The position numbers and the translations under genes are program-made. DNA of 64,000 nt from Escherichia coli (lineage in GTDB: Bacteria > Pseudomonadota > Gammaproteobacteria > Enterobacterales > Enterobacteriaceae), in NCBI RefSeq assembly GCF_002854065.1, contig NZ_CP024147.1; one strand, 5' to 3'. The stretch's first letter is position 1, and each line of letters begins with the position of its first letter. The notes below the pieces were generated by a model. It ran no database searches, was not told the DNA's origin, and saw only the letters and a program-made list of their open reading frames with translations. Shown here piece by piece: positions 18,375-63,775 of the stretch.

Positions 18375-18432
18375 TCATTACCCTCTTCAAACAGAAGAGG
18401 GTTAGATTGCTGACAAAATGCGCTTTGTTCAT

Positions 18433-18530
18433 GCCGGATGCGGCGTGAACGCCTTATCCGGCCTACATAATCACGCAAATTCAATATATTGCAGGGATCA
18501 TGTAGACCGGATAAACGTAGTGCATCAGGC
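18433..18530. repeat. REP/BIME palindromic elements
   Basis: GCCGGATGCGGCGTGAACGCCTTATCCGGCCTAC and inverted partner TAGACCGGATAAACGTAGTGCATCAGGC. Confidence 0.8.
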
Positions 18531-18554
18531 AAAACGTAAACAACGAGTACATTA

Positions 18555-19286
18555 ATGAGCGAAATGATTTACGGCATCCACGCAGTGCAGGCCCTGCTGG
18601 AGCGCGCCCCTGAACGTTTTCAGGAAGTCTTTATTTTAAAAGGCCGTGAAGATAAACGTCTGTTACCGCTGATTCACGCCCTTGAGTCTCAGGGCGTGGT
18701 TATCCAGTTGGCAAACCGCCAATATCTCGACGAGAAAAGCGACGGTGCCGTGCATCAGGGCATTATCGCCCGCGTGAAGCCAGGACGTCAGTATCAGGAA
18801 AACGATCTGCCGGATCTGATCGCTTCGCTCGATCAACCGTTCCTGCTGATCCTCGACGGTGTAACCGATCCGCACAACCTCGGCGCGTGCCTGCGTAGCG
18901 CGGACGCTGCTGGCGTTCACGCGGTGATTGTGCCGAAAGATCGCTCCGCACAGCTCAACGCCACGGCGAAAAAAGTAGCCTGCGGCGCGGCAGAAAGCGT
19001 TCCACTGATTCGGGTGACTAACCTTGCGCGCACCATGCGTATGTTGCAGGAAGAGAATATCTGGATCGTCGGTACGGCAGGCGAGGCGGATCATACACTC
19101 TATCAGAGCAAAATGACCGGACGCCTGGCGCTGGTGATGGGCGCGGAAGGTGAAGGTATGCGTCGCCTGACCCGTGAACATTGCGATGAGTTGATCAGCA
19201 TCCCAATGGCAGGAAGTGTTTCTTCTCTGAACGTTTCGGTTGCAACCGGAATTTGCTTATTTGAAGCGGTTCGTCAGCGCAGCTAG
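18555..19286 (+). CDS. rlmB: 23S rRNA (guanosine2251-2'-O)-methyltransferase RlmB (SpoU/TrmH family)
   Basis: 243-aa [25 protein letters not shown]; SPOUT motifs. Confidence 0.95.
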
Positions 19287-23554: not shown

Positions 23555-25180
23555 GTGCACTGGCAAACTCACACCGTTTTTAATCAAGCTATACCATTAA
23601 ATAACAGCAACTTATACCTGTCTGATGGCGCGCTTTGCGAAGCGGTAACGCGTGAAGGTGCTGGCTGGGATAGCGATTTTCTAGCCAGTATTGGTCAGCA
23701 GTTAGGAACGGCTGAATCCCTTGAACTGGGGCGGCTGGCGAATGTGAATCCGCCTGAATTATTGCTCTACGATGCGCAAGGACGCCGTCTGGACGATGTG
23801 CGTTTTCACCCCGCCTGGCACCTGCTGATGCAGGCGCTATGTACCAATCGGGTGCACAATCTTGCCTGGGAAGAAGACGCTCGCTCCGGCACATTTGTGG
23901 CGCGCGCGGCGCGTTTTATGTTACATGCGCAGGTTGAGGCAGGGTCGTTATGTCCGATAACCATGACCTTTGCCGCCACGCCATTGTTGTTACAGATGTT
24001 ACCCGCGCCGTTTCAGGACTGGACCACGCCGCTATTGAGCGATCGCTACGATTCTCACTTATTGCCAGGTGGGCAAAAACGCGGTTTGTTGATTGGCATG
24101 GGCATGACGGAAAAGCAGGGCGGTTCCGATGTTATGAGCAACACCACCCGTGCAGAGCGTCTGGAAGATGGCTCTTATCGGCTGGTGGGGCATAAATGGT
24201 TTTTCTCGGTTCCGCAAAGCGATGCGCATCTGGTGCTGGCGCAGACCGCGGGTGGTCTGTCCTGCTTTTTTGTGCCGCGCTTTTTGCCTGACGGGCAACG
24301 CAACGCGATTCGCCTCGAGCGGCTGAAAGATAAGCTGGGTAATCGCTCTAACGCCAGTTGCGAAGTGGAGTTTCAGGATGCCATTGGTTGGTTGTTGGGG
24401 CAGGAAGGGGAAGGAATTCGTCTGATCCTGAAAATGGGTGGGATGACGCGTTTTGATTGCGCCCTGGGTAGCCATGCCATGATGCGCCGTGCATTTTCGC
24501 TGGCGATTTATCATGCACATCAACGCCATGTTTTTGGTAATCCATTGATCCAACAGCCCCTTATGCGTCATGTCTTAAGTCGCATGGCACTTCAGCTTGA
24601 AGGGCAAACGGCGTTGCTGTTTCGTCTTGCGCGAGCGTGGGACCGGCGTGCCGATGCCAAAGAAGCCCTGTGGGCGCGTTTATTTACGCCTGCGGCAAAA
24701 TTTGTGATCTGCAAAAGAGGTATGCCGTTTGTGGCCGAAGCGATGGAGGTGCTGGGCGGCATTGGTTATTGCGAGGAGAGCGAGCTGCCGCGGCTTTACC
24801 GGGAGATGCCGGTAAACAGTATTTGGGAAGGTTCCGGCAATATTATGTGCCTGGATGTGTTGCGCGTTCTCAATAAGCAAGCGGGCGTATACGACTTATT
24901 GTCGGAAGCATTTGTGGAAGTGAAAGGGCAGGATCGCTATTTTGATCGCGCGGTTCGTCGTTTACAGCAGCAGCTGCGTAAGCCAGCTGAAGAACTGGGG
25001 CGAGAGATTACTCATCAGCTATTCCTGCTGGGCTGCGGTGCGCAAATGTTGAAATATGCTTCTCCGCCAATGGCGCAGGCGTGGTGTCAGGTGATGTTAG
25101 ATACGCGCGGCGGCGTACGGTTGTCAGAGCAGATCCAGAATGATTTATTGCTGCGGGCGACGGGGGGAGTGTGTGTGTAA
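23555..25180 (+). CDS. aidB: Adaptive-response protein AidB (acyl-CoA dehydrogenase family)
   Basis: Track ORF 23537..25180; 541 aa from GTG at 23555 (HWQTHTVFNQ); ACAD fold. Confidence 0.93.
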   Translation: MHWQTHTVFNQAIPLNNSNLYLSDGALCEAVTREGAGWDSDFLASIGQQLGTAESLELGRLANVNPPELLLYDAQGRRLDDVRFHPAWHLLMQALCTNRVHNLAWEEDARSGTFVARAARFMLHAQVEAGSLCPITMTFAATPLLLQMLPAPFQDWTTPLLSDRYDSHLLPGGQKRGLLIGMGMTEKQGGSDVMSNTTRAERLEDGSYRLVGHKWFFSVPQSDAHLVLAQTAGGLSCFFVPRFLPDGQRNAIRLERLKDKLGNRSNASCEVEFQDAIGWLLGQEGEGIRLILKMGGMTRFDCALGSHAMMRRAFSLAIYHAHQRHVFGNPLIQQPLMRHVLSRMALQLEGQTALLFRLARAWDRRADAKEALWARLFTPAAKFVICKRGMPFVAEAMEVLGGIGYCEESELPRLYREMPVNSIWEGSGNIMCLDVLRVLNKQAGVYDLLSEAFVEVKGQDRYFDRAVRRLQQQLRKPAEELGREITHQLFLLGCGAQMLKYASPPMAQAWCQVMLDTRGGVRLSEQIQNDLLLRATGGVCV

Positions 25181-25238
25181 GCGTATACGACTGATGCGAC
25201 GCTGGTTTCGATTAACTAAATGAAATATGTGAAAATTG

Positions 25239-25272
25239 TAGGCCGGACAAGGCGCTCGCGCCGCATCCGGCA
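25239..25272. repeat. REP element
   Basis: AGGCCGGACAAGGCGCTCGCGCCGCATCCGGCA palindromic unit. Confidence 0.75.
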
Positions 25273-25296: not shown

Positions 25297-25572
25297 TCAT
25301 GCATACAGTATCGCCTGTACGCGCCAGTTATCAGGCTGCTGGTCTTCGTACATGGTAATAATGCGGTACCATGACGCACCTTGTTCATCGGCCTTTAACG
25401 CCACGATACGTTCCACGTCCTGCGGATCCCCTGAAATATTGCTAACTGAGATCTGACCTATTTCATTCAGGCCCGTCACGCAGTCAGCACTGGCGAATTC
25501 TGCAGACTGTGCCGTGGCGCTCGCAGGATAAGTCACTAATTGCAGCGAGGGTGAGGCAAGTAATTGTTTCAT
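25297..25572 (-). CDS. yjfN: Periplasmic DUF1471 (YhcN family) protein YjfN
   Basis: Track ORF 25297..25599; start at MKQLLASPSLQLVTYPASATAQSAEF; 91 aa. Confidence 0.85.
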   Translation of the reverse strand: MKQLLASPSLQLVTYPASATAQSAEFASADCVTGLNEIGQISVSNISGDPQDVERIVALKADEQGASWYRIITMYEDQQPDNWRVQAILYA

Positions 25573-34069: not shown

Positions 34070-34377
34070 AGATACCTCCTCGACGGCTGACTTTGTGTGC
34101 TCTCCTCTGTGATGATCTTCTGATTTAATTTTAATCAATGATAAAGAAGTTGATGGTGACCATTTCTGATGCAGTTGTTCGAAAAAACACTGTGACGGAA
34201 TGTGATGAACTTCAAATCAGCGGTTTAGAGGTTATTTGCGAAAGGGGAGATTTATTTCTGCTCCGCCCTTGAGTTTAGCGGGGTATGTCAGTACTATAAC
34301 GCGTCATTTTTCAGCCGACCTTTAACACGTTCCTTGCCTCCCCGGGATTCGGCTGACCCAGACAGGAGGCTGAATAA

Positions 34378-34791
<414 letters not shown>

Positions 34792-35857: not shown

Positions 35858-35890
35858 AAACGCCGACCAGTGGTCGGCGTTTTGCTTTAT
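35858..35890 (+). terminator. Rho-independent terminator of rpsF-priB-rpsR-rplI operon
   Basis: CGCCGACC-AGTG-GTCGGCG hairpin followed by TTTTGCTTT. Confidence 0.8.
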
Positions 35891-35936
35891 AGCGAAAGCG
35901 TTACAACTGGTAGTATAACGCTCTGATATCTATTAA

Positions 35937-37214
35937 TTAGCTTGTCGCTAACTGTACTTGCGGTTCTTCATCTTTAACTTTGATAAGCGTCCACAGCGCA
36001 ATGGCGCCAATAATGTCAAAGAAAGCCAGGGCAATAAAGAACGGCGCGAAGCCGATAATGTGAACGAATGCCCCGATAAACAGGTTGAAAATCAACTGAC
36101 CGCTCCACGCACAGGCTCCTGCCATACCCACTGCGGTAGCTACTTCGTCTTTTTTGAACAGATCGCCACCCAGAGTTGCTGCTACAGTAGAAAGACATTG
36201 ATGCGAGAACGCGCCAATACTAATCAGTAATACGGCAATGTAGGGATTTTCGACAATACTCACCAGGCCAATCGTCATCATAATGACGGCTGCAATAGTG
36301 AAGGTAATTCTTCGTGAGTTAATTAAACTCACGCCGCGATCGTGGAAGAACTTCGCGACAAAACCACTGGCTAAACAGCCGAGATCGCCCAGCAGGAAAG
36401 GCAGCCAGACGAACATGGCAATTTCTTTCAGGCTAAAATGCAGCGTTTCGACGAAGAAAATCGGCACCCAGAAGTTAATGGTTCCCCATGCCGGGTCTGC
36501 GAGAAAACGCGCGATGCCAATCCCCCAGAAATTACGTTGGCTGAGGATATGCTTGATTGACGTTTTTTCTTTCTTATCTGTTTTAAGATGCTGTTCTTGC
36601 CCTGATTCAATATAGTGGCGCTCTTCATCAGAAAGGCGTTTGGCATCTTTCGGATCTTTATAACAAAAGAACCAAAATAAAGCCGCGAGCAAAGCAAGGC
36701 TACCTGAAACAATAAACGCAAATTGCCAGCTATGAAACATAATGCACCAGGCAATCAACGGTGGAGCAAGCATCGCGCCGAGTGAGGTGCCCATATTGAA
36801 AACACCTGTCGCCACGCCACGCTCTTTTGCCGGGAACCATGTTGATGCGGTTTTTACACCCGCCGGAATTGCCGACGCTTCGCTGAAACCCATCAGGGCG
36901 CGCATAAATGCCAGACCTGACCACGTTCCGGTTAGTGCATGGCCCATTGTCGCCAGGCCCCAAATTGCGGCACATATCGCAAAACTTAACTTCAGACCCA
37001 CGGTATCAATAAAGAAGCCCATTACCGGTTGCCCTAATGTATAGGCCAACTGGAATGCACTGACAATCCATGAATATTGCTCTTTAGTTATTCCGGTTGT
37101 CTCCATAATCGTTGGAGCCGCAATACCTAACGCCGTTCTGTCCAGATAATTGATTACAGTGATAAAGCATACGAGGGCAATCATATGCCACCGGTAATTC
37201 GGTAATGACTCCAA
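35937..37214 (-). CDS. MFS transporter, anion:cation symporter (ACS) family, ExuT/GudP-like; 5' end abuts IS1 (track start codon TTG lies inside the IS1 terminus; first native in-frame ATG gives MIALVCF...)
   Basis: 425-aa ORF with ~12 predicted TM segments and ACS-family sequence character (resemblance to ExuT from memory); not at this position in K-12 as I recall. Confidence 0.75.
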   Translation of the reverse strand: MESLPNYRWHMIALVCFITVINYLDRTALGIAAPTIMETTGITKEQYSWIVSAFQLAYTLGQPVMGFFIDTVGLKLSFAICAAIWGLATMGHALTGTWSGLAFMRALMGFSEASAIPAGVKTASTWFPAKERGVATGVFNMGTSLGAMLAPPLIAWCIMFHSWQFAFIVSGSLALLAALFWFFCYKDPKDAKRLSDEERHYIESGQEQHLKTDKKEKTSIKHILSQRNFWGIGIARFLADPAWGTINFWVPIFFVETLHFSLKEIAMFVWLPFLLGDLGCLASGFVAKFFHDRGVSLINSRRITFTIAAVIMMTIGLVSIVENPYIAVLLISIGAFSHQCLSTVAATLGGDLFKKDEVATAVGMAGACAWSGQLIFNLFIGAFVHIIGFAPFFIALAFFDIIGAIALWTLIKVKDEEPQVQLATS

Positions 37215-37215
37215 C

Positions 37216-37719
37216 TTATTGATAGTGTTTTATGTTCAGATAATGCCCGATGACTTTGTCATGCAGCTCCACCGATTTTGAGAACGACAGCGACTTCCGT
37301 CCCAGCCGTGCCAGGTGCTGCCTCAGATTCAGGTTATGCCGCTCAATTCGCTGCGTATATCGCTTGCTGATTACGTGCAGCTTTCCCTTCAGGCGGGATT
37401 CATACAGCGGCCAGCCATCCGTCATCCATATCACCACGTCAAAGGGTGACAGCAGGCTCATAAGACGCCCCAGCGTCGCCATAGTGCGTTCACCGAATAC
37501 GTGCGCAACAACCGTCTTCCGGAGCCTGTCATACGCGTAAAACAGCCAGCGCTGGCGCGATTTAGCCCCGACGTATCCCCACTGTTCGTCCATTTCCGCG
37601 CAGACGATGACGTCACTGCCCGGCTGTATGCGCGAGGTTACCGACTGCGGCCTGAGTTTTTTAAATGGCGGAAAATCGTGTTGAGGCCAACGCCCATAAT
37701 GCGGGCGGTTGCCCGGCAT
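37216..37719 (-). CDS. insB: IS1 transposase InsB (expressed as InsAB' by -1 frameshift)
   Basis: 167-aa [61 protein letters not shown]. Confidence 0.95.
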
Positions 37720-37913
37720 CCAACGCCATTCATGGCCATATCAATGATTTTCTGGTGCGTACCGGGTTGAGAAGCGGTGTAAGTGAACTGCAGTTGCCAT
37801 GTTTTACGGCAGTGAGAGCAGAGATAGCGCTGATGTCCGGCAGTGCTTTTGCCGTTACGCACCACCCCGTCAGTAGCTGAACAGGAGGGACAGCTGATAG
37901 AAACAGAAGCCAC
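37638..37913 (-). CDS. insA: IS1 protein InsA (transposition inhibitor / N-terminal part of transposase)
   Basis: 91-aa [94 protein letters not shown]. Confidence 0.95.
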
Positions 37914-37971
37914 TGGAGCACCTCAAAAACACCATCATACACTAAATCAGTAAGTTGGCAGCATCACCCAT

Positions 37972-44003: not shown

Positions 44004-44384
44004 ATGAGTCAGGTTAGCCTGTCGCAACAACTGAAAGAGGGTAATCTCTTTGCGGAACAGTGCCCGTCGCGCGAGGTGTTGAAACACGTCACCAGCCGTT
44101 GGGGGGTATTGATTCTGGTGGCGCTACGCGAAGGTACTCATCGCTTTAGCGACCTGCGGCGCAAAATCGGTGGGGTGAGTGAAAAGATGCTTGCGCAGTC
44201 GTTACAGGCGTTAGAACAGGATGGTTTTCTTAACCGTATCGCGTATCCGGTGGTGCCGCCGCATGTGGAATACAGCCTCACGCCGCTGGGCGAGCAGGTG
44301 AGCGAAAAGGTTGCTGCACTGGCGGACTGGATTGAGTTGAATTTGCCCGAGGTGTTGGCGGTGCGGGATGAACGTGCGGCATAA
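44004..44384 (+). CDS. ytfH: HxlR-family transcriptional regulator YtfH
   Basis: Track ORF 43893..44384; start MSQVSLSQQLKEGNLFAEQCPSREVLKHVTSRWGVLIL; 126 aa; divergent from qorB. Confidence 0.9.
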   Translation: MSQVSLSQQLKEGNLFAEQCPSREVLKHVTSRWGVLILVALREGTHRFSDLRRKIGGVSEKMLAQSLQALEQDGFLNRIAYPVVPPHVEYSLTPLGEQVSEKVAALADWIELNLPEVLAVRDERAA

Positions 44385-44385
44385 C

Positions 44386-44485
44386 TGCCGGATGCGCTGA
44401 GCTTATCTGGTCTACGGTGCATGGCTTGTAGGGCGGATAAGATGCGCCAGCATCGCATCCGACAAAAGTGCCGGATGCGGTTGAT
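44386..44485. repeat. REP/BIME palindromic elements
   Basis: CTGCCGGATGCGCTGAGCTTATCTGG..GTAGGGCGGATAAGATGCGCCAGCATCGCATCCGACA..GTGCCGGATGCGG. Confidence 0.8.
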
Positions 44486-44511
44486 GATTTATAGGTCGAA
44501 AAAGAAGTGTT

Positions 44512-46484
44512 TTACTTACTCAAATCCACCTGATAAATCGCAAACCCGATATCATCGGTCGCGACTTTATTCATCGGATATTGCCCTTTCTCTTTAATAA
44601 ACGCTGCGGCTTTATCTGACGGGGAAGTTTCGAAACGGATATCCAGTTTCTTATCGCCGGCTATCGGTGCTAAACGCCAGTTGTTATCTGCCGCCGGGTG
44701 AATTTCCCCCGCACGTTTCGACTCATCAGCAATCCACGCTGCCAGCACCGAGCGGTTCTCATCCGGTGAAGCAAAAGCGATATGGCTGTCGCCCGTACCG
44801 GCAAATTTGCCGCCGTAAGCGCGATAGTTATTGGTGGCAACGAGGAACATGGCGTTCGGATCAATCGGCTTGCCGTTAAAGGTCAGGTTCTTAATCCTTT
44901 CCGCATTGGCATTAACCATCTGGCACTCGCCGTCATAACGGGCAGGCTGGGTAACATCAATCTGATAATTCACACCATCAATCACATCAAAGTTATAGGT
45001 GCGGAAACCATCCCAGTTGATGAGTGACTGTGGTTTCGTGTTGTCAGGATCAATCTGGTTAAACTGTCCGGCGGAGCACTCCAGCCACTCTTTCACCTCT
45101 TTACCGCTGGCTTTCACCACAATCAGCGTATTGGGGTAGAGATAAAGATCGGCGGCATTACGGAAGGTCAACTGGCCTTTTTCCACCTCCACATAGCTTG
45201 CCGGATCATTTTTGCGACCACCAACTTTAAACGGTGCAGCAGCTGAAAGCACCGGCAGTTTTGCCAGATCCGGATCGTCCTGAATGTAATGCTCGACATA
45301 CGCTTTTTGCGCGTTGTTCACCACCTGCACGGTCGGATCGTCCTGCACCAGCGCCAGATAGCTATACATATTGTCGGCGGATTTACCGATTGGCTTGCTG
45401 ACGAACTGGCGTGTGGCATCGTGATCGGCTTTGAGTGTTTCTACCAGCTTGCTGTCTTCCGCCGCGAGGGATTTTTTATTGGCGATGTCGTAAATCGGCC
45501 GTGCTTCCGCTTTCGCCTGCGTCACCTGCCATTTACCGCTGTTATTACTGAGTTGTAAGTCGACCACCCCAAGATGATCGCCCCACATGCCCGGCATTAC
45601 CGCCGGAACACCATTCAGCGTGCCTTTCGCGATATCAGCCCCTTCGATACGATATCAGCCCCTTCGATATCAGCAAAATCTTTACCTGGGAAAACGGCGT
45701 GAGCATGGCCAAACATAATGGCGTTAACGCCAGGAATTTCACTGAGGTAATAAACTGAGTTTTCCGCCATCACTTTATACGGATCGGCAGATAGCCCGGA
45801 ATGCGCCAGAACGACAACGACATCGGCACCTTTCTCGCGCATTTCAGGCACGTATTTGCGCACGGTTTCGGTAATATCATTCACCGTCACTTTTCCGGAT
45901 AAATTAGCTTTATCCCAGCCCATGATTTGCGGCGGCACGACGCCAATATAGCCAATCTTCAGCGTCTGTTTTTTTCCGTCTTTATCGACCACTTCGGTAT
46001 CTTTAATTAAATACGGTGTAAACATTGGCTGTTTGGTTCTGGCGTCAATGACGTTGGCATTTACATAAGGGAATTTCGCTCCCGCCAACGCATTTTTCAG
46101 GTAATCCAGACCGTAGTTAAATTCATGATTGCCGAGTGTACCGACCGTATAATCCAGCGTATTCAGCGCCTTATAAACCGGATGAACATCACCTGCTTTT
46201 AATCCTTTCGCCGATATGTAATCGGCCAGCGGACTCCCCTGAATCAAATCGCCGTTATCGACCAGTACGCTGTTTTTCACTTCATTGCGGGCATCGTTAA
46301 TCAGGCTTGCCGTACGTACCAGTCCGAATTTTTCCGTGGCGGTGTCTTTGTAATAATCGAAATCCATCATGTTGCTATGCAGATCAGTGGTTTCCATGAT
46401 ACGTAGATCGACCGTCGCTGCATTCACACTGGCGGCAATCAGCGTGGCCAGGAGCGTTGCGCTAAACTTAATCATCAGGGACAT
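44512..46484 (-). pseudogene. cpdB: cpdB (periplasmic 2',3'-cyclic-nucleotide 2'-phosphodiesterase / 3'-nucleotidase) split by a 20-bp tandem duplication
   Basis: N-terminal ORF 45615..46484 (signal peptide [36 protein letters not shown], ends ...[19 protein letters not shown]) and C-terminal ORF 44512..45597 ([15 protein letters not shown]...) are adjacent and co-directional; removing one 20-bp copy rejoins them in frame. Confidence 0.85.
45630..45669. repeat. Perfect 20-bp tandem duplication CGATATCAGCCCCTTCGATA x2 inside cpdB
   Basis: Read directly: 45630-45649 and 45650-45669 identical. Confidence 0.9.
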
Positions 46485-46664
46485 CCTTTTATCATCGGGA
46501 ATACGAAAGAAAAGGGAGAATAAACGCCTTACTTATAGAACAGTGAAGAATGCCACAATTTTACGCTTTGAAAATGATGACACTATCACAGTTGGCGCAT
46601 TCATTAACGATAGGGTATAAGTAAAACAATAAGTTAACACCGCTCACAGAGACGAGGTGGAGAA

Positions 46665-47405
46665 ATGTTAGATCAAGTATGCCAGCTTGCACGGAATGCA
46701 GGCGATGCCATTATGCAGGTCTACGACGGGACGAAACCGATGGACGTCGTCAGCAAAGCGGACAATTCTCCGGTAACGGCAGCGGATATTGCCGCTCACA
46801 CCGTTATCATGGACGGTTTACGTACGCTGACACCGGAGATTCCGGTCCTTTCTGAAGAAGATCCTCCCGGTTGGGAAGTCCGTCAGCACTGGCAGCGTTA
46901 CTGGCTGGTGGACCCGCTGGATGGCACTAAAGAGTTTATTAAACGTAATGGCGAATTCACCGTTAACATTGCGCTCATTGACCATGGCAAACCGATTTTA
47001 GGTGTGGTGTATGCGCCGGTAATGAACGTAATGTACAGCGCGGCAGAAGGCAAGGCCTGGAAAGAAGAGTGCGGTGTGCGCAAGCAGATTCAGGTCCGCG
47101 ATGCGCGCCCGCCGCTGGTGGTTATCAGCCGTTCCCATGCAGATGCGGAGCTGAAAGAGTATCTGCAACAGCTTGGCGAACATCAGACCACGTCCATCGG
47201 CTCTTCGCTGAAATTCTGCCTGGTGGCGGAAGGGCAGGCGCAGCTGTACCCGCGCTTCGGACCAACGAATATTTGGGATACCGCCGCTGGTCATGCTGTG
47301 GCTGCAGCTGCCGGAGCGCACGTTCATGACTGGCAGGGTAAACCGCTGGATTACACTCCGCGCGAGTCGTTCCTGAATCCGGGATTCAGAGTGTCTATTT
47401 ATTAA
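46665..47405 (+). CDS. cysQ: 3'(2'),5'-bisphosphate nucleotidase CysQ
   Basis: 246-aa [25 protein letters not shown]; inositol-monophosphatase motifs (WLVDPLDGT). Confidence 0.95.
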
Positions 47406-47952
47406 TTAATTTATGCAGCAGGTCCATCACTTGCTGCACCTCTTCCTGTGTGAGCGCCCCGTCTTTGGCCCATTGCACGCGACCATCCTTATCCAGCACC
47501 ACTACAGCGGAACTTTCTTCATCCAGCTGCCAGGCACCGCGCGCGACGCCATTGCTATCGACAATAAACTGCGACCAGGGATAAAGCTTTTTATTACTCT
47601 CCAGACTGCTGCGCACAAACATCCCTGAACCCGGAATCGCGTCGTCGGTGTTAACAATGGTGGTGGTCTGGTAGCGATCGTGCGGTAACTTCGCTGATTT
47701 AATCGCTTCAATCAGCGTCGCGTTTTTCTCTTTTGCAGAGGTGCGACCAGCAATATGTTGCAGTACTCGCACTTTTCCCACTAACTGTGCGCTGTTCCAG
47801 GTTTTGTAGCTAAACTGATCTTTATCAAGCACCAACTCGCCTCGATCGGTAATGCCAATCGGCGGCACTCGCTGACCGGTTTCGAACTGATGTGCGGAAG
47901 CCATCATCGGCAACAGCAGGCAGGTGAGTGCCAGAATCTTGCTTAGGGTCAT
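47395..47952 (-). CDS. ytfJ: Periplasmic protein YtfJ (DUF1107)
   Basis: 185-aa ORF with signal peptide [20 protein letters not shown]; convergent 11-nt overlap with cysQ. Confidence 0.9.
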
Positions 47953-49888: not shown

Positions 49889-50064
49889 ATCTTATCCGAC
49901 CTTTCAGGCCAGATCCTCGGAAGGGGAAGTTGATTAATTTGTGTGAAATACACATTGAAAGCCGATTCGAAGAAAGTGAACCGGCATTTTCAGTGGCTAG
50001 TATAGCGTAAGGTACTGTAAAGTCGCCAGAGGGTTAAAATTCAGACTGCTGATAAATGCAATAC

Positions 50065-50165
50065 TGCCTGATGCGCTATGCCAATCAGGCCTACGCAGTC
50101 CTTGCAATATATTGAATTTGGACGATTTTGTAGGCCTGGTAAGGCGTTTACGCCGCATCTGGCAT
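50065..50165. repeat. REP/BIME palindromic elements
   Basis: GCCTGATGCGCTATGCCAATCAGGCCTAC ... GTAGGCCTGGTAAGGCGTTTACGCCGCATCTGGCA. Confidence 0.8.
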
Positions 50166-50210: not shown

Positions 50211-50849
50211 CTATGCTTCCGGTGGCAGACAGACGCCAATTCCGCCAATTCCACAGTAACCATACGGGTTTTTATGCAGATATTGCTGGTGGTCATCTTC
50301 GGCATAATAAAACGGTGTGGCGTTAGCGATTTCCGTGGTGATGTGACGATCATCATCGGCGGCAAGCATCGCCGCCTGAAAACGTTCCAGACTGGCGCGA
50401 GCTGCGGCATCCTGTTCTGGGGTCAGCGGATAAATCGCTGAACGATACTGCGTGCCGTGGTCATTGCCCTGACGCATTCCCTGGGCGGGATCGTGATTCT
50501 CCCAAAATACCTGTAGCAACTGCTCATAGCTGATGACGGAAGGATCGTAAACAATGCGTACCGCTTCGGCATGACCCGTATCACCGGAGCACACTTCCCG
50601 ATAAGTCGGATTTGGCGTATAGCCTCCGGTATAGCCTGCGGCGGTGCTGTAAACGCCGGGTAACTGCCAGAACAGACGCTCCACACCCCAGAAACAACCC
50701 ATCGCAAAAATGGCAATCTCCATTCCGTCAGGTACATTGGTCATTGAGTGACCGTTGACCGCATGCAGCGTGGCTACGGGCATCGGGGTGTTACGTCCAG
50801 GCAGGGCATCGGCGGGGGAAACCAGATGCTTTTTATCAAATAAACTCAT
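50211..50849 (-). CDS. msrA: Peptide methionine-S-sulfoxide reductase MsrA
   Basis: Track ORF 50211..50915; start [22 protein letters not shown]; active-site GCFWG; 212 aa. Confidence 0.96.
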
Positions 50850-56947: not shown

Positions 56948-57287
56948 CGATGTATCTCGCGATTTTTTTTTGTAACTTTTCCATCTTTTGCTTTTCTCTC
57001 CGAGCCGCTTTCCATATCTGCAATCGCATAAAAAACTCTGCTGGCGTTCACAAATGTGCAGGGGTAAAACGGGGGCACGCTTTGAACGGTGAGTATGAGT
57101 GAGGTCGGCTAACTTCCAGCAAGTGGCTATGAACAGCAAAATGGTGGTCGGGTTTGCTTGTTCTTACCGTTCAAGCCTTGCAACCGCTGAGAATAATGAT
57201 GGTGGAATAGAGAGTTTATTTATCGCGGGCATAAAAAAACCCTTACTAACCGAAGCCCGGCGTTCAGGGTTATTGCGCTAGAAGAAC

Positions 57288-58127: not shown

Positions 58128-59084
58128 ATGTGGAAACGCTTACTTGTAGTCTCTGCAGTCTCGGCAGCCATGTCGTCTATGGCGTTGGCCGCTCCATTAA
58201 CCGTAGGATTTTCGCAGGTCGGATCGGAATCTGGCTGGCGCGCCGCAGAAACCAATGTGGCGAAAAGTGAGGCCGAAAAACGCGGAATTACGCTGAAAAT
58301 TGCCGATGGTCAGCAAAAGCAGGAAAACCAGATTAAAGCGGTACGTTCCTTCGTCGCGCAAGGGGTGGATGCGATCTTTATCGCTCCGGTGGTTGCGACT
58401 GGTTGGGAACCGGTATTAAAAGAGGCGAAAGATGCCGAAATCCCGGTCTTCTTGCTCGATCGTTCTATTGATGTGAAAGACAAATCTCTCTATATGACCA
58501 CCGTCACTGCCGACAACATTCTCGAAGGCAAGTTGATTGGTGACTGGCTGGTAAAAGAAGTGAATGGCAAACCATGCAACGTGGTGGAGCTGCAGGGCAC
58601 TGTTGGGGCCAGCGTCGCCATTGACCGTAAGAAAGGCTTTGCCGAAGCCATTAAGAATGCGCCAAATATCAAAATTATCCGCTCGCAGTCAGGTGACTTC
58701 ACCCGCAGTAAAGGCAAAGAAGTCATGGAGAGCTTTATCAAAGCGGAAAACAACGGCAAAAACATCTGCATGGTTTACGCCCATAACGACGACATGGTGA
58801 TTGGTGCAATTCAGGCAATTAAAGAAGCGGGCCTGAAACCGGGCAAAGATATTCTGACAGGTTCTATCGACGGCGTACCGGATATCTACAAAGCGATGAT
58901 TGATGGCGAAGCGAACGCCAGTGTTGAACTGACGCCGAATATGGCAGGTCCCGCCTTCGACGCGCTGGAGAAATACAAAAAAGACGGCACCATGCCTGAA
59001 AAGCTGACGCTGACCAAATCCACCCTTTATCTGCCTGATACCGCAAAAGAAGAGTTAGAGAAGAAGAAAAATATGGGGTATTGA
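58128..59084 (+). CDS. ytfQ: Galactofuranose ABC transporter periplasmic binding protein YtfQ
   Basis: 318-aa ORF with signal peptide MWKRLLVVSAVSAAMSSMALAAP. Confidence 0.95.
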   Translation: MWKRLLVVSAVSAAMSSMALAAPLTVGFSQVGSESGWRAAETNVAKSEAEKRGITLKIADGQQKQENQIKAVRSFVAQGVDAIFIAPVVATGWEPVLKEAKDAEIPVFLLDRSIDVKDKSLYMTTVTADNILEGKLIGDWLVKEVNGKPCNVVELQGTVGASVAIDRKKGFAEAIKNAPNIKIIRSQSGDFTRSKGKEVMESFIKAENNGKNICMVYAHNDDMVIGAIQAIKEAGLKPGKDILTGSIDGVPDIYKAMIDGEANASVELTPNMAGPAFDALEKYKKDGTMPEKLTLTKSTLYLPDTAKEELEKKKNMGY

Positions 59085-59092
59085 GGGTTGCT

Positions 59093-59200
59093 ATGCCTGA
59101 TGCCGATTCGTAGGCCGGATAAGGCGCTCGCGCCGCATCCGGCGGTGGTGCGCTGAAGCCTGATGCGACGCTTACCGCGTCTTATCATGCCTACTGGGAG
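59093..59200. repeat. REP/BIME palindromic elements
   Basis: GCCTGATGCCGATTCGTAGGCCGGATAAGGCGCTCGCGCCGCATCCGGCGG ... GCCTGATGCGACGCTTACCGCGTCTTATCATGCCTAC. Confidence 0.8.
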
Positions 59201-59223
59201 CACGCTTTACACCGGGGGAAACC

Positions 59224-60726
59224 ATGACGACTAACCAACACCAGGAGATCCTCCGCACCGAAGGATTAAGTAAATTTTTCCCCGGCGTCAAAGCGTTAGA
59301 CAACGTTGATTTCAGCCTGCGCCGCGGCGAAATCATGGCGCTGCTCGGTGAAAACGGGGCAGGAAAATCAACGCTAATCAAAGCATTAACTGGTGTATAC
59401 CACGCCGATCGCGGCACCATCTGGCTGGAAGGCCAGGCTATCTCACCGAAAAATACCGCCCATGCACAACAACTCGGTATCGGCACCGTCTATCAGGAAG
59501 TAAACCTGCTACCCAATATGTCGGTCGCTGATAATCTATTTATAGGCCGCGAACCCAAACGCTTCGGCCTTCTACGCCGCAAAGAGATGGAAAAGCGCGC
59601 CACCGAACTGATGGCATCTTACGGTTTCTCCCTCGACGTGCGCGAACCGCTCAACCGCTTTTCAGTCGCGATGCAGCAAATCGTCGCTATTTGCCGGGCT
59701 ATCGATCTCTCTGCCAAAGTGCTGATCCTCGATGAACCCACCGCCAGTCTCGACACCCAGGAAGTGGAGTTACTGTTTGACCTGATGCGTCAGTTGCGCG
59801 ATCGCGGCGTCAGCCTGATTTTTGTCACTCACTTTCTCGATCAGGTCTATCAGGTCAGCGATCGGATCACCGTCTTACGCAACGGCAGTTTCGTAGGCTG
59901 TCGGGAAACGTGCGAGCTACCGCAGATCGAACTGGTAAAAATGATGCTGGGGCGCGAGCTGGATACCCACGCGCTACAGCGTGCCGGGCGAACATTGTTG
60001 AGCGACAAACCCGTTGCCGCGTTCAAAAATTACGGCAAAAAAGGAACGATCGCACCGTTTGATCTCGAAGTACGCCCCGGCGAGATCGTCGGTCTGGCTG
60101 GATTGCTGGGATCAGGACGTACCGAAACCGCCGAAGTGATCTTCGGTATCAAACCTGCTGACAGCGGCACGGCGTTGATCAAAGGCAAACCGCAAAACCT
60201 GCGATCGCCACATCAGGCTTCGGTACTGGGCATTGGCTTCTGCCCGGAAGACAGGAAAACCGATGGCATCATCGCTGCCGCCTCGGTGCGGGAAAATATC
60301 ATCCTCGCTCTCCAGGCCCAGCGCGGCTGGCTACGTCCCATTTCCCGCAAAGAACAGCAAGAGATTGCCGAACGCTTTATCCGCCAGCTTGGCATTCGCA
60401 CACCTTCAACTGAACAACCGATTGAATTTCTCTCTGGCGGCAATCAGCAAAAAGTGTTGCTTTCACGTTGGCTACTGACCCGACCGCAATTTCTGATCCT
60501 TGATGAGCCAACTCGCGGCATTGATGTTGGTGCCCACGCCGAGATCATCCGCCTGATTGAAACGCTATGCGCCGATGGTCTGGCGCTGCTGGTGATCTCC
60601 TCCGAACTGGAAGAACTGGTGGGCTATGCCGACCGGGTGATCATCATGCGCGATCGCAAACAGGTGGCGGAGATCCCGCTGGCAGAGCTTTCCGTTCCGG
60701 CGATCATGAACGCCATTGCGGCGTAA
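59224..60726 (+). CDS. ytfR: Galactofuranose ABC transporter ATP-binding protein YtfR (two fused ABC domains)
   Basis: 500-aa ORF; two Walker A sites (GENGAGKST, GLLGSGRTE) and two signature motifs. Confidence 0.95.
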   Translation: MTTNQHQEILRTEGLSKFFPGVKALDNVDFSLRRGEIMALLGENGAGKSTLIKALTGVYHADRGTIWLEGQAISPKNTAHAQQLGIGTVYQEVNLLPNMSVADNLFIGREPKRFGLLRRKEMEKRATELMASYGFSLDVREPLNRFSVAMQQIVAICRAIDLSAKVLILDEPTASLDTQEVELLFDLMRQLRDRGVSLIFVTHFLDQVYQVSDRITVLRNGSFVGCRETCELPQIELVKMMLGRELDTHALQRAGRTLLSDKPVAAFKNYGKKGTIAPFDLEVRPGEIVGLAGLLGSGRTETAEVIFGIKPADSGTALIKGKPQNLRSPHQASVLGIGFCPEDRKTDGIIAAASVRENIILALQAQRGWLRPISRKEQQEIAERFIRQLGIRTPSTEQPIEFLSGGNQQKVLLSRWLLTRPQFLILDEPTRGIDVGAHAEIIRLIETLCADGLALLVISSELEELVGYADRVIIMRDRKQVAEIPLAELSVPAIMNAIAA

Positions 60727-62776: not shown

Positions 62777-63775
62777 TTACGCGTCCGGGAATTCACGGAT
62801 AAAGCGTTCGACATCTTCAACCATATGGTCGTTGCCGACAAAGAACGAACGGCGCTGGTGCAGAGTTTCCGGGATGATATCCAGAATACGCTCTTTGCCA
62901 TCGCTCGCTTTACCGCCCGCTTGTTCCGCCAGGAATGCCATCGGGTTGCACTCATACAGCAAACGCAGTTTGCCGTCCGGGTGGCTGGCGGTGCTTGGGT
63001 AGAGATAAATACCGCCTTTCAGCAGGTTACGGTGGAAATCCGCGACCAGTGAACCGATATAACGTGAGGTATACGGGCGGTTGGTGGATTTATCTTCTTC
63101 CTGGCAGAATTTAATGTACTTCTTCACCCCGTTCGGAAACTTAATGTAGTTTCCTTCGTTGATGGAGTAGGTTTTGCCTTTCTCCGGGAAGCGCATCCGT
63201 TCCTGGCACAGGCAGAAAACGCCCAGCGAAGGATCGTAAGTAAAGGCGTGAACACCGCATCCGGTGGTGTAAACCAGCATGGTAGAGGAGCCGTATACCA
63301 CGTAACCTGCCGCAACCTGTTTGTTACCAGGCTGGAGGAAATCTTCTTCCGTTACCGGCGTGCCAACAGGCGTAACGCGGCGGTAGATGGAGAAAATGGT
63401 ACCGACAGAGACGTTAACATCGATGTTGGACGAGCCATCCAGGGGGTCCATCAGCACCACGTATTTTGCGTGTTCACAGCCTTCAAAGACGACAATCTCA
63501 TCTTCTTCTTCAGAGGCAATGCCCGCAACGATATCGCGTGCTTTCAGTGCGGCTTTCAGTTTTTCATTAGCGAACAAGTCGAGTTTCTGCTGAACCTCGC
63601 CCTGCACGTTCTCAGCACCGCTGGCACCCAGGATATCAACCAGTCCTGCTTTGTTGATATCGCGATGGATAATCTTGGCGCCCAGTTTTATTGCCGACAG
63701 CAAAGCAGTGAGCTCACCGGTAGCATGAGAAAACTCGTGCTGCTTTTCGACAATAAATTCACCTAACGTTTTCAT
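62777..63775 (-). CDS. fbp: Fructose-1,6-bisphosphatase class 1
   Basis: Track ORF 62777..63958; start [26 protein letters not shown]; 332 aa. Confidence 0.97.

Follow-up and report, generated by a model that had tools for sequence, protein, structure and literature searches.

Knowledge of REP/BIME elements goes back to the early 1980s. Intercistronic REPs are reportedly found at malE-malF and hisJ-hisQ, in work attributed to Newbury et al. in 1987 and Stern et al. in 1988, and RIP/RIB elements, linked with the names of Oppenheim (1993) and of Boccard and Prentki (1993), are said to be BIME-1 with an IHF site. The REP/PU and BIME literature runs from Higgins and Stern in 1982-84 through Gilson, Bachellier and Hofnung to the summary of Ton-Hoang et al. 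2012 (PMC3333891). Of the two z units, the short one of 30 nt is z1 and belongs to BIME-1, and the long one of 37 nt is z2 and belongs to BIME-2 (PMC3333891, PMC4550694). BIME-1 and its L linker have been defined and the L linker described as an IHF site, the copy number of REPs at one locus differs among strains, and binding and cleavage by TnpA-REP (RAYT) is a biochemical property of REPs (PMC3333891).

REP and BIME units at five extragenic loci

The window, i.e. the whole stretch of 64,000 nucleotides that was analysed, is a segment of a non-K-12 E. coli chromosome. A preliminary description had placed REP/BIME units at five intergenic sites, here numbered 1 to 5 (rnr-rlmB, aidB-yjfN, ytfH-cpdB, msrA-paeA(ytfL) and ytfQ-ytfR), and we found REP units at all five, with coordinates that agreed to within 1-2 nt and flanking gene names that proved right at every site when checked against MG1655. 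Comparing the window with the y, z1 and z2 consensus sequences by BLAST we called nine full REP units and four fragments, all of them extragenic with respect to the annotated or called genes and the K-12 alignment. The full units show 83-100% identity to the y, z1 or z2 consensus (E 2e-3 to 5e-15), the GTAG (CTAC in an iREP) is intact in all nine, and eight of them fold as a hairpin of -10 to -21 kcal/mol, the exception being the z1 at 18502-18531. Furthermore, the decamer GCCKGATGCG occurs nine times exactly in the window against 0.51 expected, a number that none of 100 shuffles reached, and seven of these copies fall within the five sites. The remaining two copies (1360 and 26408) are isolated in coding sequence with no surrounding palindrome and were not taken as REPs; weak matches at 37460-37479 (inside IS1 insB) and 63243-63264 (coding sequence) were rejected for want of REP context. 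The consensus and decamer scan gave no sixth REP site in the window.

The identification as REP/BIME was thus borne out at five of five sites by the consensus BLAST, the decamer enrichment (9 vs 0.51) and an Rfam naRNA4 match at site 5. The BLAST search against the REP family had been proposed as a check, with the absence of a consensus match as the outcome that would speak against the identification, and the consensus was matched. The unit types need a correction: GCCGGATG is indeed y-type, but not all units are y, four or five being z-type (GCCTGATG). All five sites are also present in MG1655 and nearly identical in K-12. With the 100-bp ytfH element as query, a median of 16 places per genome was found in 5425 of 5426 E. 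coli genomes (41 of the 86,289 places being plasmid-borne), and with a 341-bp ytfQ-ytfR query the median was 6 places per genome. Five loci per 64 kb equal the genome-wide density implied by the 355 REP elements annotated in 4.64 Mb (PMC4550694). By sequence, the units carry the GTAG and the stem mismatches that TnpA-REP requires. The published definitions of BIME-1 and BIME-2 (PMC3333891) fit the arrangements seen, which supports the REP/BIME identity. On these sequence grounds we assign all five sites to the REP (palindromic unit) family of E. coli; as BIMEs they comprise two BIME-1, one single y with a decayed partner, one decayed atypical BIME and one BIME-2 unit. The finding is correct but ordinary, as REP/BIME elements were already known and the loci are conserved in E. 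coli K-12.

Sites 1 (18432-18531) and 4 (50065-50164) are BIME-1, each with y and z1 inverted and in single copy. The left arm of site 1 is a y REP in iREP orientation (TGCC...CCTAC on the + strand; 18432-18466, -), which starts 57 nt past the rnr stop (18372-18374), agrees with the y consensus at 35 of 35 positions (E 5e-15), is identical in K-12 and forms an RNA hairpin of -21.3 kcal/mol. The right arm is a degenerate short z1 REP (GTAGACCGG...CATCAGGCA; 18502-18531, +) with 87% identity to the short Z consensus (E 3e-5) and a weak hairpin of its own (-3 to -4.7 kcal/mol), ending 23 nt upstream of the rlmB ATG (18555). Site 4 has the opposite orientation: a z1 iREP (50065-50094, -; 90% short Z consensus, E 5e-7; hairpin -11 to -13 kcal/mol) is followed by a y REP (50130-50164, +; 89% y, E 4e-8) that lies on the msrA transcript, 46 nt downstream of the msrA stop (50211-50213, -). 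The L linkers (18467-18501 and 50095-50129) are 35 nt long each, have the common core AAATTCAATATATTGCA and contain an IHF-like site, ATTCAATATATTG, at 18479-18491 and at 50105-50117 (-), which by sequence agrees in both with the IHF consensus WATCAANNNNTTR at 12 of 13 positions; at site 4 Rfam ES036/CssrF matches 50087-50129 (-) with 39.3 bits vs a gathering score of 37.6. The whole BIME of site 1 folds with -47.4 kcal/mol (z -5.9) and that of site 4, on the transcribed (-) strand, with -41.9 kcal/mol (z -3.9). The genes rnr and rlmB are in one operon (PMC4161252, PMC3534368), and a scan of 18300-18620 found neither a promoter nor an intrinsic terminator. The BIME-1 of site 1 therefore lies inside an operon, so that the ytfQ-ytfR copy, rightly described before as intra-operonic, is not the only such case. 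The MG1655 counterparts of sites 1, 4 and 5 are 4409153-4409252, 4441392-4441491 and 4450930-4451028.

At site 2 a single y REP (25238-25272, +; 91% y, E 8e-10), identical in K-12 and forming a hairpin of -19 to -20 kcal/mol on either strand, lies between the convergent aidB and yjfN, 24 nt from the yjfN stop (25297-25299). A z2 iREP head fragment (GACTGATGCGACGCTGG; 25189-25205, -) is found 8 nt past the aidB stop (25178-25180); it agrees with z2 consensus positions 4-18 at 15 of 15 (E 2e-3), contains the decamer with one mismatch and is extragenic by K-12 alignment. The whole segment folds no better than dinucleotide shuffles (z +0.1/-1.1).

Site 3 is an atypical BIME with linkers of 12 and 5 nt. 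It consists of a z1-length iREP with a y-like head (TGCCGGATGCGCTGAGCTTATCTGGTCTAC; 44386-44415, -; 83% short Z consensus, E 2e-3), a z2-like REP (GTAGGGCGGATAAGATGCGCCAGCATCGCATCCGAC; 44428-44463, +; BLAST match 44428-44459 with 87.5% long Z consensus, E 3e-6) and a y iREP head fragment (TGCCGGATGCGG; 44469-44480, -), which agrees with the y consensus head at 12 of 12 positions, includes an exact decamer and is conserved in 7 strains. The first unit starts 1 nt past the ytfH stop (44382-44384), has a hairpin of -10.8 kcal/mol and carries internal deletions of 5 or 11 nt in other E. coli strains. The hairpin of the z2-like unit has about -15 kcal/mol. In the MFE structure of the site this unit is split between two partners, the tail of the first unit for the 5' half and the following fragment for the 3' half. 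From an alignment of 7 E. coli strains we tentatively assign 44491-44498 (+), 13 nt from the cpdB stop (44512-44514), as the remnant of the 5' end of a degenerate truncated REP, reading ATAGGTCG in the window vs GTAGGCCG in strains NU14 and 98205. A terminator-like site (hairpin and U-run) was not found by a scan of 44200-44700. The ytfH-cpdB element is retained in at least 5356 of 5426 genomes. In the window strain cpdB is a frameshifted pseudogene and any role of the element for its transcript is therefore moot there. REPs had correctly been seen at the aidB and ytfH sites; decayed fragments are present there too, the one at 25189-25205 being absent from the earlier list.

Site 5 begins 9 nt past the ytfQ stop (59082-59084) with a z iREP head fragment (TGCCTGATGC; 59094-59103, -; 10 of 10 positions of the Z head) that is conserved in K-12. 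It is followed by a y REP (59110-59143, +; 94% y, E 6e-11; hairpin -19.5 kcal/mol), a linker of 14 nt (59144-59157) and a z2 iREP (59158-59194, -; 89% long Z consensus, E 2e-7; hairpin -14.7 kcal/mol), which ends 29 nt before the ytfR ATG (59224). An inverted y and z2 with a short linker make this a BIME-2 unit. Rfam naRNA4 (RF02564) matches 59113-59191 (+) over the full model (1-77 of 77) with 67.3 bits vs a gathering score of 59.5; the y REP is the first helix of this match, the 14 nt align to the linker of the model, and the naRNA4 consensus independently agrees with the y and z2 assignments. Weak naRNA4 matches are also found at sites 1, 2 and 4. The whole segment of site 5 folds no better than dinucleotide shuffles (z -1.2).

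Proposed action as RNA hairpins

What is observed here of the repeats is their sequence identity and type, their position outside genes, their potential to form hairpins, their dispersal and their polymorphism among strains; taken as a whole, this is best, and quite probably, explained by REP/BIME copies that were spread by TnpA-REP and act mainly as RNA hairpins protecting message ends. The transcript of each site would belong to a 3' UTR or to a spacer within an operon, and its REP hairpins, rich in G+C and with no U-tract, would block 3'-to-5' exonucleases. Neither an intrinsic terminator nor a promoter was detected at sites 1, 3 and 5, which leaves the REPs as the sole stable structures of these sites. 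For the convergent pairs ytfH/cpdB and aidB/yjfN we propose that transcription passes the REPs and is stopped by Rho 150-300 nt beyond, and that the tail is then trimmed back to the REP hairpin, leaving a stable 3' end. In MG1655, Rho-termination peaks at 4434325(-) and 4415796(-) follow the REPs of the cpdB and yjfN transcripts at a distance of about 170 and 160 nt (Rho-termination regions from Adams 2021, supplementary file 2), and REP-protected Rho-dependent transcripts show the same geometry (Dar and Sorek 2018, PMC6061677). The curated Term-seq lists, searched by coordinate for all five sites, contain no 3' end directly at any REP hairpin. In the ytfQ-ytfR spacer the hairpins would make the ytfQ segment upstream of them more stable and might also attenuate read-through, so that message for the periplasmic binding protein would accumulate in excess over that for the ATPase and permeases, as is said of malE-malF and hisJ-hisQ. 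The repeats themselves would be non-autonomous, and their spreading and reshaping by the REP-associated transposase TnpA-REP would explain the fragments and the variation between strains.

The ytfQ-ytfR junction and competing explanations

The earlier suggestion that the ytfQ-ytfR element influences how stable the mRNA is and how much binding protein is expressed relative to ATPase and permeases is supported by three independent lines of evidence, namely a spacer with no promoter or terminator, a step-down in transcriptomes and a conserved hairpin slot. A scan of the 139-nt spacer found neither a sigma-70-like promoter nor, over 58900-59400, an intrinsic terminator. The next junction in the operon, ytfR-ytfT, has about 10 nt, and most other same-strand spacers in this K-12 region have at most 50 nt, with rnr-rlmB (179 nt, BIME-1) and rlmB-yjfI (126 nt) as long-spacer exceptions; the REPs explain the long spacers after rnr and ytfQ.

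In a published transcriptome of O157 Sakai the log2 change of ytfQ is 6.29 vs 2.57, 3.32 and 2.59 for ytfR, ytfT and yjfF, and in that of STEC FORC_035 it is 5.77/5.58 vs 3.66/2.90, 3.96/1.83 and 3.54/0.50. All four genes are co-induced in both, with a step-down of 2-4 log2 units after ytfQ, these values being fold-changes in other strains and not absolute levels; the gap between ytfQ and ytfR could also stem from an internal promoter or from differing basal levels. Uniform transcript coverage across the junction had been named as the outcome that would speak against the suggestion, and the step-down in the fold-changes of the two transcriptomes does not point to it. The position is of the malE-malF type, as the element lies in one transcription unit of which the upstream gene is induced more. 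A minor Term-seq 3' end at 4451058(+) of MG1655 corresponds to the first base of ytfR, 30 nt past z2, and is weak (1505 reads, one condition); it was the only 3' end that the coordinate search of the curated Term-seq lists gave for the five sites.

Looking beyond E. coli and across Proteobacteria, the spacer at this junction is at least 45 nt long in 76 of 78 species, the comparison including Enterobacterales, Aeromonas, Vibrio and Rhizobiales, and it folds with z < -2 in 58 of 71, as judged against mononucleotide shuffles, a weaker control than dinucleotide ones. Its occupants are unrelated and comprise REP pairs, GGGAGAGGG-type palindromes, a hairpin with a U-run and unique palindromes. Even within E. 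coli the occupant of the slot is exchanged between strains: the spacer has 132, 139, 212 or 309 nt and its REP content varies, from the single unit and fragment of the window and K-12 to an extra y in GN04592, whose spacer is the one of 309 nt. Some strains read GTGG for GTAG and some have lost GTAG or z2 (GF131), showing that no particular REP is required; every E. coli variant examined keeps at least one strong hairpin. It is quite conceivable, even if we would stop short of calling it probable, that the junction is a selected hairpin slot for which mobile repeats are recruited and replaced to serve a ratio-setting RNA function and, as a smaller possibility, that the ytfH REP lowers YtfH output by stalling. 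The comparison illustrates that what is conserved after the binding-protein gene is the hairpin and not the repeat family, and, as this is the operon of a little-studied sugar transporter, it could be developed there into a simple test of what REPs do. Our literature search found no paper that treats ytfQ, ytfR and their intergenic region together.

The same variation could be expected from selfish or neutral passengers, i.e. DNA mobilised by TnpA-REP and kept where insertion was tolerated, as at 3' ends, between convergent genes and in long spacers, with no local function. Decayed fragments at 25189-25205, 44469-44480, 44491-44498 and 59094-59103 fit such an origin, as do the strains with internal deletions in the ytfH unit or with lost GTAG or z2 at ytfQ-ytfR, a REP density in the window equal to the genome average (PMC4550694) and the known copy-number variation between strains at a locus (PMC3333891). 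We nevertheless consider it rather unlikely as an explanation, as mere passengers would account neither for the 45 nt or more, usually strongly structured, that 76 of 78 species have between ytfQ and ytfR, whatever the repeat family, nor for an expression step exactly at this junction, a strong hairpin in each E. coli variant examined and a ytfH-cpdB element kept in at least 5356 of 5426 genomes.

A role at the DNA level, with sites 1 and 4 as IHF-binding RIP/RIB and site 5 as a gyrase site independent of transcription or as a cruciform contact for nucleoid bridging by HU and naRNA, organising supercoiling between transcription units, seems to us on the improbable side as well. It could draw on the IHF-like site that both L linkers share at 12 of 13 positions and on the description of the BIME-1 L linker as an IHF site (PMC3333891). 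BIME-2 elements are enriched in gyrase cleavage sites, which fall preferentially within y (PMC6379681), but the gyrase hotspots named in that paper are multi-copy BIME-2 arrays (sucC-sucB, tldD-yhdP), whereas site 5 is a single unit. Site 5 also matches naRNA4, an RNA that condenses DNA together with HU (PMC4550694); this match, however, reflects only that naRNA4 is a BIME-2 unit. The unrelated hairpin families at ytfQ-ytfR argue for an RNA or structural role over a protein-specific DNA site. Roles at the DNA and at the RNA level are not mutually exclusive.

For the ytfH copy alone, a hairpin stalling the terminating ribosome, followed by tmRNA trans-translation and less YtfH, has been considered. 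In its favour, the stop (44382-44384) is followed by the REP from 44386 on, the first paired base of the MFE fold is 10 nt past the ytfH stop, the junction TAAC-TGCCGG is conserved in 7 strains, and the rule of Liang et al. 2015, as summarised in PMC12306157, is that of a REP within 15 nt of the stop. Such a throttle is still quite unlikely, given that the first unit is weak (-10.8 kcal/mol) and that the 11-nt deletion of many strains removes its own hairpin.

The weakest reading, with the naRNA4/CssrE (59113-59191) and ES036/CssrF (50087-50129) matches as independent sRNA genes or with the repeats as intrinsic terminators, is very hard to believe even though both matches exceed their gathering scores, because site 5 has no promoter-like site, the two Rfam models are built from BIME pieces so that any BIME-2 unit or BIME-1 linker matches them, and scans of sites 1, 3 and 5 (18300-18620, 44200-44700 and 58900-59400) gave no hairpin followed by a U-run. 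For annotation this means that both Rfam matches are pieces of BIMEs and not separate sRNA genes.

Comparison with described systems

As in the REPIN and RAYT/TnpA-REP systems (Bertels and Rainey 2011, PMC3116915; Nunvar 2010, PMC2817692), the inverted REP doublets can form a single long hairpin, which is seen in the MFE folds of sites 1, 3 and 4, and the GTAG that TnpA-REP recognises is intact; the transposase gene is absent from the window. With REP-protected Rho-dependent transcripts (PMC6061677) the cpdB and yjfN transcripts share REPs that have no U-tract and lie past the stops, as well as Rho regions 160-170 nt further on, and they differ in that no curated Term-seq 3' end is found at these hairpins. 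The naRNA4 RNA of REP325 (Qian et al. 2015, PMC4550694; RF02564) has the same y-linker-z2 architecture as site 5, but REP325, located between yjdM and yjdN, is an array of six units whereas site 5 is a single unit, and HU binding and nucleoid condensation have been shown for REP325 RNA only (PMC4550694).

The five sites agree with the E. coli REP/BIME family itself in sequence and in the imperfect palindrome of 30-37 nt with its GTAG foot; like its members they are extragenic, occur in many copies and form inverted pairs across L or short linkers. Nothing essential is different, apart from the partial decay of sites 2 and 3 and the single unit in place of a tandem array at site 5. Sites 1 and 4 resemble RIP/RIB in having y, L and z1 with the core AAATTCAATATATTGCA, a likeness that is one of sequence. 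A close parallel to the ytfQ-ytfR element is provided by malE-malF and hisJ-hisQ, where the REP likewise comes after the gene of a periplasmic binding protein and before the ABC-transporter genes that follow in the same operon and where the upstream gene is more highly expressed, as ytfQ seems to be; by analogy with them, expression of ytfQRT-yjfF may likewise depend on its REP.

REP units and their genomic setting

We compared the window with the y, short Z and long Z consensus sequences by BLAST and found REP/BIME elements at all five intergenic sites where the preliminary description had placed them, with nine full units altogether. The rnr-rlmB gap (site 1) holds a y unit (18432-18466, matching 35 of 35 consensus positions) and a short Z unit (z1, 18502-18531), the aidB-yjfN gap (site 2) a y unit (25238-25272), the ytfH-cpdB gap (site 3) two Z-like units, the first short (44386-44415) and the second long (44428-44463), the msrA-paeA gap (site 4) a short Z (z1, 50065-50094) and a y unit (50130-50164), and the ytfQ-ytfR gap (site 5) a y (59110-59143) and a long Z unit (z2, 59158-59194). 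Four REP fragments are located at 25189-25205, 44469-44480, 44491-44498 and 59094-59103. By definition the long L linker joins y to z1 in BIME-1 and a short linker joins y to z2 in BIME-2 (Ton-Hoang et al., PMC3333891), naRNA4 shows the architecture y-linker-Z2 (Qian et al., PMC4550694) and its Rfam consensus has the long Z form; the 30-nt unit was therefore assigned to z1 and the 37-nt unit to z2. Exact GCCKGATGCG decamers occur nine times in the window compared to 0.51 expected, seven of them within the five sites. The other two as well as two weak BLAST matches were rejected, being located in coding sequence or IS1 and having no palindromic context, and neither the decamer scan nor the consensus BLAST revealed a further REP site in the 64-kb window. 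All nine units are extragenic and have an intact GTAG or CTAC foot, and the predicted fold lies between -10 and -21 kcal/mol in all except the degenerate z1 of site 1 (eight of nine).

In the alignment, each of the five sites hardly differs from its K-12 counterpart. Used as query, the 100-bp ytfH element matched in 5425 of 5426 E. coli genomes, the median being 16 places per genome and only 41 of all 86,289 places being plasmid-borne; for the ytfQ-ytfR query the median was 6 places per E. coli genome. As an independent test, the curated Rfam model naRNA4 matches at full length at 59113-59191 (67.3 bits, gathering score 59.5) and weakly at sites 1, 2 and 4, and ES036 (CssrF) matches the L linker of site 4. 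As both models were built from BIME pieces, these matches confirm the repeat and not separate genes; separate sRNA genes at the Rfam matches were rejected on this ground. Thus, the five sites are ordinary E. coli REP/BIME repeats that have long been known, and five loci per 64 kb correspond to the average K-12 density calculated from 355 annotated REP elements (PMC4550694).

The window aligns to MG1655 from 4,405,000 to beyond 4,452,000 with 97-98% identity, with three blocks replaced or missing, and the gene names given in the preliminary description are correct by this comparison, ytfL now being called paeA. A 1-kb piece around the ytfH element (ytfH, qorB, cpdB) matched in 5423 of 5426 complete E. 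coli genomes with a best identity of 99.9%. The region 35888-37969 is unlike K-12, which has yjfZ and the ytfA pseudogene there, and encodes an MFS transporter of 425 aa that belongs to the D-galactonate-transporter subfamily (35937-37214, minus strand); IS1 (insB 37216-37719, insA 37638-37913) adjoins ytfB. The window lacks ytfI, a gene of about 1.2 kb in K-12, at 47405-47410, and also the toxin-antitoxin pair chpS-chpB, in whose place there are about 129 bp of unrelated sequence (57071-57200). Rfam also matched three tandem tRNA genes (1647-1942), the RpsF leader (34314-34398, 110 bits) and, between cpdB and cysQ, the ES239 sRNA (46476-46598, 154 bits), all on the plus strand.

BIME-1 elements and convergent gene pairs

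Sites 1 and 4 are BIME-1 elements in mutually opposite orientation whose 35-nt linkers have AAATTCAATATATTGCA in common, and an IHF-like site (12 of 13 matches) is predicted from sequence in both linkers. Putative DNA-level roles, in which BIME-1 would be a site for IHF and BIME-2 one for gyrase or HU-naRNA, are plausible from the literature (PMC3333891, PMC4550694, PMC6379681) and are compatible with a role of the REPs in RNA. The preliminary description had named the ytfQ-ytfR copy as lying inside an operon; as a correction, the rnr-rlmB BIME-1 has to be added as intra-operonic as well, with rnr and rlmB in one operon (Conway et al.) and nsrR-rnr-rlmB-yjfI in another paper (PMC4161252, PMC3534368). 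Directly 3' of the rnr stop codon and 5' of this BIME-1 there is a perfect short hairpin without U-run (accctcttc-aaaca-gaagagggt, 18380-18402), its loop having one inserted base compared to K-12. In the paeA 5' leader, adjoining the other BIME-1, Rfam STnc450 matches with 77 bits (49950-50007, minus strand). Strong published Term-seq 3' ends at the paeA start (MG1655 4441214 and 4441217, minus strand) suggest premature termination in this leader.

Sites 2 and 3 are each flanked by convergent genes. Site 2, between aidB and yjfN, has just one y REP and, 8 nt 3' of the aidB stop codon, a z2-head fragment. Site 3 (44386-44485), under which the preliminary description had entered the elements, shows more degeneration than the other four. 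Its first unit has the length of z1 and a y-type head; a z2-like unit, a fragment of a y head and the remnant of another GTAGGCCG follow in this order. The first unit shows internal deletions of 5 or 11 nt in other E. coli strains, despite which the element as a whole is kept in at least 5356 of 5426 genomes, and in the predicted RNA fold inverted neighbours pair together and not unit by unit. The adjacent cpdB (minus strand) is frameshifted at 45630-45669 by a 20-bp tandem duplication (cgatatcagccccttcgata twice), resulting in two ORFs (44512-45597 and 45615-46484); this allele (201 bp, at least 99% identity) was found in 149 of 5413 E. coli genomes and is therefore a lineage-specific pseudogene.

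Proposed transcript ends at REP hairpins

At sites 1, 3 and 5 our scan found neither a sigma-70-like promoter nor a hairpin with U-run, so that intrinsic terminators were rejected and the REPs are the only stable structures there. Steady-state 3' ends of Rho-dependent E. coli transcripts are located just past stable hairpins without U-tracts, a quarter of which are annotated REPs, as termination takes place further downstream and exonucleases then trim the tail to the hairpin (Dar and Sorek, PMC6061677). Adams et al. (2021) tabulated Rho-termination regions, two of which lie in this stretch of the chromosome on the minus strand: on the yjfN transcript about 160 nt past the y REP (antisense to aidB, peak 4415796), and on the cpdB transcript about 170 nt past the REP cluster (antisense to ytfH, peak 4434325). 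This is the geometry expected for hairpin-protected ends; in the curated Term-seq lists, however, no 3' end maps directly to the REP hairpins of aidB-yjfN or ytfH-cpdB. REP hairpins without U-tract would most likely come to lie at 3' ends after Rho has stopped transcription downstream and exonucleases have removed the tail.

The ytfQ-ytfR junction

Site 5, a Z-head fragment followed by one y-z2 unit, fills most of the 139-nt ytfQ-ytfR spacer, in which neither promoter nor terminator was found by scan, and the next operon junction after ytfR measures about 10 nt. In two published transcriptomes the four genes of the operon are co-induced with a clear step after ytfQ: the log2 change is 6.29 for ytfQ and 2.57, 3.32 and 2.59 for ytfR, ytfT and yjfF in O157 Sakai at stationary-phase entry, and 5.77/5.58 compared to 3.66/2.90, 3.96/1.83 and 3.54/0.50 in STEC FORC_035 on plant tissue. 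As these values are fold-changes, a promoter inside the operon or unequal basal levels could also give rise to them. Published Term-seq data have a 3' end, weak and seen in one condition (1505 reads), that coincides with the first nucleotide of the ytfR ATG at window position 59224 (MG1655 4451058, plus strand), 30 nt past z2 and off the hairpin.

Within E. coli the spacer is polymorphic (132, 139, 212 or 309 nt) with differing REP number and in some cases a GGGAGAGGG-type element, and each variant examined retains at least one strong hairpin. Variants were seen in strains GN04592, GF131 and AVS0970; in some strains a further y REP is present, as is a GGGGAGAGGGTTAGGGTGAGGGG palindrome from another repeat family, and in others GTGG replaces GTAG and the z2 unit is decayed. 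Among ytfQ neighbourhoods from 80 species, ytfR follows ytfQ in 78, with a spacer of at least 45 nt in 76 of these and of 20-22 nt in two Serratia genomes. The spacer folds with z < -2 in 58 of 71 tested cases (median z -3.7, mononucleotide shuffles). The hairpin families are unrelated in sequence: REP pairs occur in Escherichia, Citrobacter and some Enterobacter, long GGGAGAGGG-type palindromes in Enterobacter cloacae, Pluralibacter and Pseudocitrobacter, hairpins with U-runs in some Erwinia and Pantoea, and unique palindromes in Aeromonas, Vibrio and Rhizobiales. As the occupants are unrelated and a strong hairpin is kept in each E. coli variant examined, it is the hairpin that is conserved and not the repeat. 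Together with the promoter- and terminator-free spacer and the expression step, this supports the earlier proposal that the REP modulates the expression ratio inside the operon.

That REPs are purely selfish elements would fit the REP fragments and the strain polymorphism but seems rather unlikely to us in view of the conserved ytfQ-ytfR slot and the expression step. Likewise rather improbable is a translation throttle at ytfH, where the spacing of 1 nt between stop codon and site 3 fits the 15-nt rule (summarised in PMC12306157) but the element's first unit is a weak one that many strains have lost in part. Modulation of the expression ratio by a hairpin at the ytfQ-ytfR junction is the reading we prefer, and the only mildly new point is the comparative evidence for a conserved hairpin slot at this junction, in which repeat families can replace one another. 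Its arrangement matches that of malE-malF and hisJ-hisQ, the classical cases of intercistronic REPs.
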